A stretch of DNA of 64,000 bases from Escherichia coli (GTDB lineage Bacteria; Pseudomonadota; Gammaproteobacteria; Enterobacterales; Enterobacteriaceae). Of this stretch, positions 22,926 to 24,918 are shown piece after piece (within the stretch, counting starts at the first letter, position 1; each line of letters begins with the position of its first letter). A program made the translations under genes and the position numbers. The stretch lies in assembly GCF_024298765.1 (NCBI RefSeq), contig NZ_CP101210.1, one strand, 5' to 3'. The notes below the pieces were generated by a model. That model worked only from the letters and a program-made list of their open reading frames with translations. It did not search any database and was not told the DNA's origin.

Positions 22926-23450
22926 GGGCTGGGCCATGTCGTTCTCGCCGGACAGCAGGCTCACCATGAAAGCACTGGAAATGGTATGGGAAACCCGTGG
23001 TAAGCCCGTCGGGGTGATGTTCCACAGCGATCAAGGCAGTCATTATACGAGCAGGCAGTTCCGGCAGTTACTGTGGAGATACCGGATCAGGCAGAGTATG
23101 AGTCGGCGTGGAAACTGCTGGGATAACAGCCCAATGGAGCGCTTCTTCAGGAGTCTGAAGAACGAATGGGTGCCGGCGACGGGCTATGTAAGCTTCAGCG
23201 ATGCAGCTCACGCAATAACGGACTATATCGTTGGATATTACAGCGCACTAAGACCGCACGAATATAATGGTGGGTTACCACCAAACGAATCGGAAAATCG
23301 ATACTGGAAAAAACTCTAACTCGGTGGCCAGTTTTTGTTGACCACTTCACTAAGACCGCACGAATATAATGGTGGGTTACCGCCAAACGAATCAGAAAAC
23401 CGATACTGGAAAAACTCTAACGCGGTGGCCAGTTTTTGTTGACCACTTCA
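22926..23450 (+). mobile_element. 3'-terminal fragment of an IS3-family element (IS911-like terminal repeat), carrying the OrfB C-terminus
   Basis: OrfB-like C-terminus ...[49 protein letters not shown]...[13 protein letters not shown]; terminal sequence tggccagtttttgttgaccacttca (reverse complement TGAAGTGG...) typical of IS3-family IRs. Exact IS name is from memory. Confidence 0.6.
23248..23450 (+). repeat. Tandem direct duplication (~102 + 101 bp, ~93% identical) of the terminal segment of the IS3-family element, including its outward-facing terminal repeat
   Basis: Units 23248-23349 and 23350-23450 both start ctaagaccgcacgaatataatggtgggttacc and end ggtggccagtttttgttgaccacttca. Confidence 0.85.
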
Positions 23451-23463
23451 TACCGCAGGAGGC

Positions 23464-24918
23464 ATGATGGAGAGCATTAATAATCAAGTGCAGTCGGTAC
23501 GCCAGTTGCTGGCCATTCCCCAACTGGCCATCCCAAGCTATCAGCGACCTTACCGCTGGGGCTCCAAGAATATCTCGGATCTCTTTACCGATTTGGCAAC
23601 CCATCAGGACAAGAGCGCCTACCGGCTGGGCTCGGTGGTGTTTCATCAGCACACCGATAGTGAGCAGGGCGAAATGCTTGATATCGTCGATGGTCAGCAA
23701 CGCACCCTGACCCTGATGTTGACCGTCAAGGCGCTGATCGAGGTGCTGGATAACGAAAATCGCAGTGGCAAAGAGAAGAGTATCCGGTTTCAACGTCAGG
23801 ATCTGCGTGAGCAATTGCAGGTCTTGCGTGGACCTATCGATGCGTTTATGCAGCGCCAGCGCTTCCCCAGCCGGGATTCGGAGTTCAACCTCAGACGTAA
23901 CTATCTGGAGTTGCGTCGGCTGGTGGCCCGCCCTGAGTTTGACGAGCAGCAAATTGACTTTCTGCTCAACCGCTGTCAGGTGGTCTGCTTTGTACTGCAG
24001 GATATCTCGGAGGCGTTCCAGTTCTTCGATTCGCAAAATGCCCGGGGGCGCGATCTGGCTCCTCACGATCTGCTCAAGGCATTTCACCTGCGCGAGTTTG
24101 CCGGTCATGAGGCCAATCTCAAGGCCGAGGCGGTCGCCCATTGGGAGCGCCTGCCAAGCGACGAGCTGGCCAATCTGTTCGCCCTCTATCTCTATCGGGT
24201 ACGCCAGTGGGCCGAGGGCAAGTCGGCCCGCTACTTTGGCAAGGGGGAGGTGGATCTCTTCAAGGGGGTCAACCTAGATCGGGTAGGGCATTATCCTTAC
24301 GTGGAGTCGCTGCGCATCGCCCACCACTTTGTCGATGAGTACAACAGCCAGTACCAGCGCAAGATTGACGGCCAGTACATGACGTTTCCCTTTCATCTCG
24401 ACCAGATGATCATCAATGGTCGGCGCTTTTTCGAGATGGCCGAGTACTACCAGACGCGGGTGGCCGCCATCGTGGCCGAGGAGTCTGATTCCGGCAAGGC
24501 GCAATCTGCCACCCTGCTCGGCGAAACGCTGACACCGATGGCCAGCAAGGTGCTATCGACCCTGGGCAGCTACGAGCGTCGCCACCGCACCGGGGATCGT
24601 TATGTGCGGGCCATGTTCGACTGCGCCCTGATCTTCTATATCGACAAGTTCGGCAGCCAAGGGCTGTCACTGGCCATCGAGAAGTGCTTTATCTGGGCCT
24701 ATCGCTGCCGCATCCGCCAGCAGGTAGTGCAGTTGGCAACCATGGATAACTATGTGCTGGAGCACAATCTGATCCGTGCCATTCGTGATGCTCGTCTGCC
24801 GGGAGATCTGCACGGCTTCCCTTTGCCTAGCATGAGCAGTCGAGAGAACAAGAACAATCGCAATGGTGCCGAAGATGAGCTGGTCGGGCTGTTTCGGGAG
24901 ATGAAATATTATGAATGA
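23464..24918 (+). CDS. DUF262 (ParB/Srx-like NTPase fold) protein; candidate defence component, GmrS-like
   Basis: 484 aa; DUF262 signature [10 protein letters not shown] ... [13 protein letters not shown] and [18 protein letters not shown]; RBS aggagg before the ATG; 3' end overlaps the next gene by 8 bp. Confidence 0.75.

Follow-up and report, generated by a model that had tools for sequence, protein, structure and literature searches.

Where did a repeated insertion sequence (IS) end upstream of a DUF262 operon in Escherichia coli come from, and does it supply the operon with a promoter? We analyzed a 64-kb stretch of E. coli DNA (NZ_CP101210.1; hereafter the window), whose coordinates are used throughout; the operon and every feature described below lie on its plus strand. 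An earlier note on this DNA had described about 101 bp of an IS3-family terminus occurring twice in tandem before the operon, and our repeat search found the tandem exactly there. Copy 1 occupies 23248 to 23349 (102 nt) and copy 2 occupies 23350 to 23450 (101 nt), with 23246-23312 matching 23348-23414 (96%, period 102) and 23309-23349 matching 23410-23450 (98%, period 101). On reading the sequence, a 2-nt 'CA' at the joint can be assigned to either copy. The copies differ in five places: 23280A/23382G, 23292G/23394A, 23298T/23400C, a run of six A residues (23308-23313) against five (23410-23414), and 23321T/23422G. Their identity of ~95% over 102 nt cannot be due to chance. Tandem Repeats Finder did not report the repeat, probably because it has two copies only. 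Copy 2 ends 6 nt before the AGGAGG ribosome binding site (23457-23462). The first ATG (23464) follows at a distance of 13 nt and the annotated one (23467) at 16 nt, the whole start region spanning 23457 to 23469; the 13 bp previously given as the distance to the ribosome binding site is in fact the distance to the first ATG.

Repeats of ~100 nt can be mis-assembled, but nothing specific points to an assembly or sequencing artefact here, and we give that explanation next to no weight. The repeat is not an assembly artefact because the same 621 bp is found at 99.8 to 100% identity in three independent complete E. coli assemblies, which come from different countries and have different flanking genes. 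Furthermore, the copies differ, and reads can therefore be placed unambiguously.

By its domains and alignments, the truncated element is the right end of ISEc52, an IS911-like member of the IS3 family. The remnant comprises the 3' 432 nt of the element (22918-23349), in an allele that we call E-type, as delimited by its rve domains and by alignment to the full-length ISEc52 of a Klebsiella variicola plasmid (L004) and an E. coli chromosome (L007). It lacks the left inverted repeat (IRL) and orfA, and retains an orfB remnant (22924-23319) and a complete right tip. The open reading frame (ORF) at 22924-23319 matches Pfam rve (2.3e-15), rve_3 and rve_2, represents the C-terminal part of OrfB only, and is annotated as a DDE-type integrase pseudogene; the six-A run of copy 1 moves the orfB stop forward to the TAA at 23317-23319. 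As the IS is truncated at 22918, the orfA/orfB frameshift region is absent from the window; the full-length relative in E. coli PSS-16 is annotated with a 'programmed frameshift'. Upstream of the truncation lies an hsdS' fragment (22631-22917), the N-terminal part of a type I specificity subunit, which has no Pfam match and is identified from RefSeq names in relatives ('hypothetical' or 'restriction endonuclease subunit S domain-containing'). Its fusion to the truncated IS creates a 112-amino acid ORF (22631-22969).

The ISEc52 inverted repeat pattern has two matches in the window (none expected from shuffled sequences), both of them right ends in the same orientation. These right inverted repeats (IRRs), delimited by the pattern match and by comparison of IRL and IRR in L004, lie at 23314-23349 in copy 1 and 23415-23450 in copy 2. 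Both copies end in GACCACTTCA and the full-length relative begins with TGAAGTGG, giving 5'-TG...CA-3' termini, and the IRL and IRR of L004 have the blocks TGAAGTGGT and TGGCCACC in common. An outward-facing TTGACC is present in each IRR (23338-23343 and 23439-23444), the first of them resembling a -35 hexamer as in IS911 (PMC9330008). The description of an IS3-family right end with a terminal repeat and an outward TTGACC was thus upheld by the rve domains, the near-identity to ISEc52 and the IRR match. Elements with tails 100% identical to these carry the RefSeq name ISEc52 family. We rejected an assignment to IS911 itself: TATAAT reads TATAAC in the IS911 remnant, which differs at many sites. 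The two ISEc52 variants have 1211 of 1247 positions in common, and either is ~94 to 95% identical to the IS911 remnant. ISEc52 generates 3-bp target repeats, as seen in the CTA/CTA flanking the chromosomal element of L007; at the DUF262 junction, the left flanks of the IS are rearranged.

The operon itself consists of two overlapping genes. Gene A (23467-24918) matches Pfam GmrSD_N (1.9e-28) and DUF7834 (9.3e-77) and is classified by PADLOC as HEC-06/Orf5-like. Gene B (24911-26953; GmrSD_N and GmrSD_C, from Pfam and PADLOC) overlaps it by 8 nt. This GmrSD-like DUF262 pair is usually followed by Hhe. In an IS-free Aeromonas homologue (97% amino acid identity), similarity to the window starts at 23451, an alignment that shows the IS tip at 23450 to be the original insertion point, 13 nt before the ATG. 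Because this homologue aligns only from the IS tip onward, the native upstream region was displaced by the IS. In the Aeromonas locus without the IS, a consensus scan detected no native promoter. There, the frame is open upstream of gene A, which raised the option of an N-terminal extension of this gene; we rejected it because the Acetobacter homologue contains an in-frame stop codon four codons ahead of the ATG and because AGGAGG and ATG are conserved in the Aeromonas, Vogesella and Acetobacter homologues. The DUF262 gene is present in 254 of 5426 complete E. coli genomes, and the IS-tip/operon junction in all 254; the junction also occurs on about 397 plasmids. Full-length ISEc52 with the same tip/TACCGCAGGAGG junction was found on the K. 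variicola plasmid and in E. coli PSS-16. Having lost the native upstream region, every carrier must rely on transcription that starts within the IS remnant or reads through it.

The earlier note had regarded the tandem as a duplication of one element's end. We find instead that the copies correspond to two different, pre-existing ISEc52 alleles. Copy 2, which we call K-type, matches without a difference, across all 101 nt, the end of the full-length ISEc52 that adjoins the DUF262 operon in E. coli PSS-16 (L095) and on Klebsiella plasmids (L004 and L005). These matches show copy 2 to be the tail of an ISEc52 copy whose insertion took place 13 nt ahead of the DUF262 start codon, creating a junction that has since accompanied the operon on Klebsiella plasmids and in E. 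coli chromosomes. Copy 1 lies within 110 nt identical to the chromosomal E. coli ISEc52 tail of L007, and comparison of the alleles likewise shows it to derive from a different ISEc52 variant, one found in E. coli chromosomes. The remainder of the 432-nt remnant upstream of copy 1 is probably of the same chromosomal variant; its markers 23040T and 23077A match L007, not the plasmid type. The five differences between the copies are exactly the five sites that separate the L007 type from the plasmid type in this stretch. Since they match two existing alleles, one per copy, the tandem is not a duplication of one element. A simple duplication starts from identical copies and gathers scattered new mutations, a pattern that these five sites do not show.

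An ordinary tandem duplication of the last 101 nt, by replication slippage or unequal sister-strand exchange, would have to be followed by divergence or by gene conversion from another ISEc52. The head-to-tail arrangement and the 2-nt CA microhomology at the joint are compatible with slippage, conversion donors are plentiful (ISEc52 occurs in 22 places in LD93-1, for example), and mosaic tails are present in relatives. Against it, all five differences fit the two existing alleles exactly, in one block per copy; copy 2 has the sequence of the ancestral plasmid allele, and copy 1 belongs to the variant that extends further upstream. For a very small clade that started from identical copies, five changes within 102 nt are also too many, given that the flanking 3.5 kb shows zero differences among the window, 50EVA and CUPF09. 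Moreover, under slippage only chance would place one of the breakpoints precisely at the IS tip. We therefore consider a slippage origin very unlikely.

The position of the joint points to transposition. An IS tip is the site of transposase cleavage, and the joint coincides with the tip, within the 2-nt CA ambiguity, where a random breakpoint would rarely fall. Nucleotide 1148 of the first ISEc52 follows immediately after the intact E-type tip (...CACTTCA). We infer a same-orientation insertion of a second ISEc52 into the tail of the one already present. The DNA in between would then have been lost by deletion or by recombination of the two elements, leaving a truncated IS with an additional 101-nt tail behind it. 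Such a nested insertion predicts a left junction of the form ..GCGCACTA|TGAAGTGG.., in which GCGCACTA or GCGCACTAA would be followed by TGAAGTGGTTTACTG. In a megablast search of E. coli genomes, the predicted sequence matched only as two pieces from separate parts of the IS and never as a continuous junction, so that insertion followed by deletion is deduced from the end product. An illegitimate join via the 2-nt CA microhomology and a one-ended transposase event between the two alleles are possible alternative routes. Overall, we favor, with some confidence, the reading that the supposed duplication represents two ISEc52 right ends brought together by insertion and deletion or recombination, most likely without a selected function.

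The tandem is rare. It occurs in only three of the 254 E. coli carriers, from the USA, Singapore and Laos and with different flanks. None was present among the plasmid matches listed, and the 36-nt tandem junction GTTGACCACTTCACTAAGACCGCACGAATATAATGG had no exact match in metagenome contigs. The tandem is also unstable, because recombination occurs readily between 101-nt direct repeats with 95% identity; it would remove one copy, as in CUPF09. This genome carries copy 1 alone, together with the same downstream IS1 insertion, and over ~4 kb none of the variable sites distinguishes it from the window. 50EVA / 2020CK-00188, with the tandem, are identical to CUPF09 at all compared sites in ~4 kb around the operon, save for the 101-nt copy. 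In EM20-18-50, the tandem is present, that IS1 is absent, and positions 22985, 24384 and 25384 differ. Because of this pattern of sites and IS1, we place the origin of the tandem before the EM20-18-50 split and its loss in CUPF09.

Note that the haplotypes are mosaic, with sites 23673 and 25300 failing the four-gamete test, and therefore tree-based arguments on the age of the tandem are limited to the closest relatives. Three change-over points from chromosomal-type to plasmid-type sequence fit crossovers between the copies. A fourth (23040-23077, in ~28 genomes) lies outside the repeat. Strains such as DETEC-P351 and Ecol_244 have the plasmid-type tail. We considered whether all single-copy alleles might be deletion products of the tandem and, because of this fourth point and the recombinant haplotypes, rejected the idea as a general explanation, retaining it for CUPF09 only.

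The joint does create a promoter-like arrangement. TATAAT is found at 23263-23268 and 23365-23370, and the TTGACC of copy 1 (23338-23343) is followed, across the joint, by the TATAAT of copy 2 after exactly 21 nt, in agreement with the ~21 bp noted earlier. The same TTGACC can also be read with an 18-nt spacer and GAATAT (23362-23367). In a simple weight-matrix scan with a spacer penalty, the arrangement (23338-23370) was the best sigma-70-like site near the operon: the 21-nt register scored 13.2 (top 3 of ~1e6 hexamer pairs in the 64-kb window) and the 18-nt register 9.4 (rank 168). A consensus promoter scan with 16 to 18 nt spacers did not report the joint site. A second promoter-like site, TTGACC-18-CATGAT (23439-23468), is present in every operon carrier, with an expected start at ~23475, after the start codon. 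Rfam had no matches in 22600-23800, and the would-be leader (23374-23500) folded no better than shuffled sequences (z = -0.64).

A hybrid promoter at the joint is plausible from these motifs. A stronger proposal is that the joint is a working hybrid promoter, starting near 23374-23378 with a leader of ~90 nt, and that it has been kept because it switches on a promoterless DUF262 operon; we judge this unlikely, although it has arguments in its favor. The hexamers match consensus at 11 of 12 positions (TTGACC 5/6, TATAAT 6/6) and the site ranks in the top 3 despite the spacer penalty, whereas single-copy forms lack it and their best upstream site ranks about 770. The operon's native upstream region was displaced by the IS, the tandem has been kept in three strains with different flanks, and the corresponding IRR hexamer of IS911 is the proven -35 of its circle-junction promoter (PMC9330008). 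The spacing is a clear weakness, as the earlier note had recognized: sigma-70 spacers are 17 nt, give or take 1 or 2, and high activity is seen with 15 to 19 nt, beyond which the 21 nt at the joint falls, although consensus hexamers with spacers above 19 bp keep moderate, above-background activity (PMC8695583). The junction promoter of IS2 is dead with a single extra spacer base (PMC3299598), and the -10 of the 18-nt register matches at just three of six positions and is without a TG extension.

The carriers without the tandem also argue against selection for it. In none of the 10 loci translated was either ORF disrupted, and synonymous and nonsynonymous changes number 14 and 13 (roughly dN/dS 0.3), consistent with some purifying selection. 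Because 251 of the 254 E. coli genomes and ~397 plasmids carry an intact operon without it, the tandem is not needed to keep the genes, and it was lost in CUPF09. Its TTGACC-21-TATAAT or TTGACC-18-GAATAT may nevertheless add some transcription in the three tandem strains. We consider it very unlikely that the tandem acts as a one-way switch of the GmrSD-like operon, in which the ISEc52 insertion would have cost the operon its own promoter, the joint would be the sole effective promoter, recombination between the repeats would delete it at a measurable rate and silence the operon, and ISEc52 transposase acting in trans might bind the -35-bearing IRR and modulate the promoter. Most likely, the tandem has no selected function. 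Two observations nonetheless speak against this: the joint is the strongest promoter-like site, with no other convincing plus-strand promoter within ~3 kb upstream of the operon, and the tandem persists in strains from three countries with different flanks.

We conclude that the tandem is a scar left by mobile-element activity, rare and unstable, and that its junction resembles a promoter. More broadly, the locus traces the spread of a defence operon welded to an IS tip, from IS-free Aeromonas to Klebsiella plasmids and E. coli chromosomes, and records successive IS-into-IS insertion, truncation and repeat loss. Should the joint be a promoter, it would be a further case of mobile-element debris wiring up a defence system, in a variant not described before, with the -35 and -10 from different IS copies. 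If not, it is a neutral scar of relevance mainly to annotation, for which the label 'duplication of one element' is unfit. Either way, 50EVA / 2020CK-00188 and CUPF09 form a ready natural comparison pair for the promoter question.

Several known systems resemble this locus. Nested IS insertions can be reduced, by recombination between their homologous segments, to incomplete ends present more than once, and further recombination then eliminates the direct repeats. Like these deletion scars, the locus presumably has one IS copy inside another, and it has partial repeated ends; it presents the end product, with the left junction not found in E. coli genomes by megablast. The tandem dimers, (IS)2, of IS21, IS30 and IS3-family elements similarly place IS sequences head to tail, but they comprise two complete elements with a reactive IRR-IRL junction, whereas the locus has two right ends, no IRL and no transposase gene. 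With the junction promoters (Pjunc) of IS911 and IS2, the joint shares the position of the outward -35 hexamer in the IRR (PMC9330008; PMC3299598), and in both the site arises only where an IRR tip abuts other IS sequence. In Pjunc, only a few base pairs separate the IRR from the IRL, the promoter spacer is 17 nt, and the promoter faces the transposase gene. At the joint, the IRR abuts an internal position of the IS, 101 nt short of another right end (there is no IRL in the window), the promoter spacer measures 21 nt, or 18 nt if the poor -10 is used, and the site faces a host operon. Finally, in IS-borne hybrid promoters, the -35 comes from the IS end and the -10 from the abutted DNA, upstream of a gene severed from its own promoter (PMC9330008). 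The joint has the same layout, except that its putative -10 would come from a second copy of the same IS rather than from target DNA.

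Two right ends of the insertion sequence (IS) ISEc52 lie head to tail upstream of the DUF262 operon (genes A and B): copy 1 at 23248-23349 and copy 2 at 23350-23450, with a 2-nt CA at the joint assignable to either copy. Reading of the sequence and a repeat search agree with the earlier note that an IS end of ~101 nt is repeated here, and a 27-nt inverted-repeat core terminates both copies (two pattern matches in the window, none in shuffles). The IS3-family assignment also holds: integrase-core domains were found by domain search in an ORF fragment (22924-23319), and in RefSeq the full-length relatives carry the name ISEc52, which belongs to the IS3 family and is closely related to IS911. 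The second copy ends 6 nt before AGGAGG (23457-23462), not 13 bp as noted earlier; it is the first ATG (23464) that lies 13 nt past copy 2, and gene A is annotated from the second ATG, at 23467. The window's ISEc52 is truncated at 22918, where it is joined to an hsdS fragment, and an inverted-repeat pattern search and alignment to relatives found its left end and orfA missing.

On a plasmid of Klebsiella variicola, a complete ISEc52 (~1249 bp, starting TGAAGTGG... and ending ...GACCACTTCA) adjoins this DUF262 gene, with a tip/TACCGCAGGAGGCATGATGG junction identical to the window's. The E. coli PSS-16 chromosome likewise has a complete element with this junction by the gene. Target repeats of ISEc52 are 3 bp (CTA/CTA). 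Copies 1 and 2 differ by four substitutions and one run-length difference (A6/A5), which are the five sites separating two ISEc52 alleles within this stretch. Copy 2 is identical (101/101 nt) to the operon-fused tail of the plasmids and PSS-16 (K-type), and copy 1 with its upstream context is identical (110/110 nt) to a chromosomal ISEc52 tail of E. coli LD93-1 (E-type). Markers 23040T and 23077A in the remnant upstream of copy 1 are also those of LD93-1, not of the plasmid type. What had been described as a duplication of one element's end is therefore a pair of distinct alleles, and should be named 'two ISEc52 right ends in tandem'. Slippage would be expected to start from identical copies, yet there are five differences within 102 nt; five new mutations are not credible because the flanking 3.5 kb has zero differences among the window and E. 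coli strains 50EVA and CUPF09. In copy 1 the A6 run (within 23308-23319) changes the reading frame of orfB so that it ends prematurely (YWKKL*), and with the A5 form of copy 2 (within 23410-23442) the frame stays open until a TGA within the right inverted repeat (IRR). RefSeq marks the E-type ISEc52 of LD93-1 as frameshifted; that genome has 22 ISEc52-like places.

One breakpoint of the joint is the IS tip, which is where transposase cleaves. Together with the allele matches, this places an E-type right tip against a resident K-type element, and we read the structure as a join to nucleotide 1148 of the latter. Most likely, a second ISEc52 would have transposed into the resident copy, and the DNA between the two would then have been lost. 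The predicted left junction of such a nested insertion was not found in a search of E. coli genomes, and illegitimate joining through the CA microhomology could possibly have produced the same tandem.

Among complete E. coli genomes, only three carry the tandem: 2020CK-00188 (USA), 50EVA (Singapore) and EM20-18-50 (chicken meat, Laos). Their flanking DNA differs, which rules out an assembly artefact. The window is 100% identical over the query to 2020CK-00188 and 50EVA, both of which have an IS1 71 nt past gene B. EM20-18-50 retains Hhe downstream and has the tandem without the IS1, so the tandem predates the IS1 insertion; its tandem is present despite differences at 22985, 24384 and 25384. 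CUPF09 shares the IS1 site and matches the window at all variable sites over ~4 kb, with copy 1 alone. Most simply, copy 2 would have been deleted from CUPF09 through recombination within the last 28 identical nucleotides. The tandem junction was absent from the plasmid matches listed and from metagenome contigs.

Single-copy genomes change from E-type to K-type at 23077-23280 (Ecol_244), 23280-23292 (SCEC020023) or 23040-23077 (~28 genomes). The first two are compatible with crossovers between the copies. The third falls outside the repeat, and the pair of sites 23673 and 25300 does not pass the four-gamete test; the haplotypes therefore recombine, and we do not claim that all single-copy haplotypes descend from the tandem. 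Across 23040-23321 and 23673-26901, single-copy relatives (L002, L003, L008, L096-L099) show four different change-over points. Segments of the defence island have been exchanged between E. coli lineages. The tandem is probably best explained as a scar, itself unstable and without a demonstrated role, that IS-into-IS activity left behind.

The closest relative of gene A (one genome per species fetched) is in Aeromonas australiensis (97% amino acid identity), at a locus without an IS. Alignment of that DNA to the window starts at 23451 (TACCGCAGGAGGC...) and extends no further upstream, so the IS tip at 23450 marks the original insertion point. The operon's native upstream region was thus displaced by the IS. 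The IS-tip junction is present in all 254 gene-bearing genomes among 5426 complete E. coli genomes surveyed and on ~397 plasmids, in most cases from Klebsiella; the operon has spread while welded to the ISEc52 tip. The IS-free A. australiensis locus (L014, 2950-2990) carries TTGTTGACC, a 9-mer identical to part of the inner ISEc52 IRR (compare 23432-23450). The 9-mer occupies the loop of a hairpin with an 8-bp stem (GATGCAGC...GCTGCATC), and 13 nt separate it from the insertion point downstream. We roughly estimate the chance of such a match at ~0.03. IS911 insertion favours the neighbourhood of sequences resembling IS911 ends.

The operon proteins (GmrSD_N+DUF7834 and GmrSD_N+GmrSD_C) resemble PADLOC HEC-06/Orf5 and SspE-type DUF262 proteins, as would fit a defence pair of the type IV restriction-like kind. 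In most relatives (L003, L008 and L010 compared), hhe (DUF4011, anti-phage) follows ~190 nt after the pair. In the window (26970-27750), 50EVA and CUPF09, the IS1 is inserted 71 nt past gene B, and the window has stbA and an AAA ATPase gene (29174-32113) in place of hhe. Upstream of the tandem, remains of IS elements and restriction-modification genes are piled together. An element at 20250-21788 (minus strand), which we take from its end sequence to be a complete IS2, is named 'IS3 family transposase, programmed frameshift' by RefSeq and directly adjoins 207 nt of an IS5-family transposase and an hsdM remnant with a frameshift (21789-22641). Three consecutive plus-strand ORFs at 3790-9807 (518, 408 and 1038 aa) are sized like the hsdM, hsdS and hsdR genes of a type I restriction-modification operon. 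In the yehD-region island of E. coli (L095, L094, L012, L011, L013), IS1 lies upstream of an operon-abutting ISEc52 remnant, which is the full element in PSS-16, 492 nt in PD7, ~237 nt in 3R and HMDUC-17 and ~74 nt in EC-07. These look like IS1-adjacent deletions halting short of the operon. The DUF262 ORFs are intact on translation in 3R and HMDUC-17; for the other island strains, the annotation gives ordinary coding sequences, not pseudogenes.

A live, though unlikely, alternative is that the joint works as a hybrid promoter for an operon whose native upstream DNA is gone. The proposed TTGACC (23338-23343) and TATAAT (23365-23370) are indeed separated by exactly 21 nt. In the close relative IS911, an outward hexamer of the IRR is proven to serve as the -35 of the circle-junction promoter (PMC9330008); the TTGACC of ISEc52 is equivalently placed. 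In a weight matrix of approximate Harley-Reynolds base and spacer frequencies, this pair scores 13.2 bits, which puts it among the three highest of about one million hexamer pairs across the 64-kb window. TTGACC-18-GAATAT scores 9.4 (rank 168), and once either copy is removed, the highest-ranking site ahead of the ribosome-binding site is at about rank 770. A promoter scan found no convincing plus-strand promoter within 3 kb upstream. However, only spacers of 15-19 bp give high activity, and longer ones significantly lower, moderate activity even with consensus hexamers (PMC8695583); one additional spacer base makes the IS2 junction promoter non-functional (PMC3299598). GAATAT matches at 3/6 positions and lacks a TG extension. 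Furthermore, the genes are intact in 10/10 loci translated, with 14 synonymous and 13 nonsynonymous changes (dN/dS roughly 0.3), and are thus maintained in hosts without the tandem; in EC-07 they are intact with just ~74 nt of IS tail. Every carrier has TTGACC (23439)-18-CATGAT, with its predicted transcription start past the start codon. Rfam gave no matches around the joint, and the fold of the candidate leader was not unusual. The pair 50EVA/CUPF09 offers a natural comparison for directly testing the hybrid-promoter reading. Both IS scars and IS-derived promoters are well-known kinds of feature.
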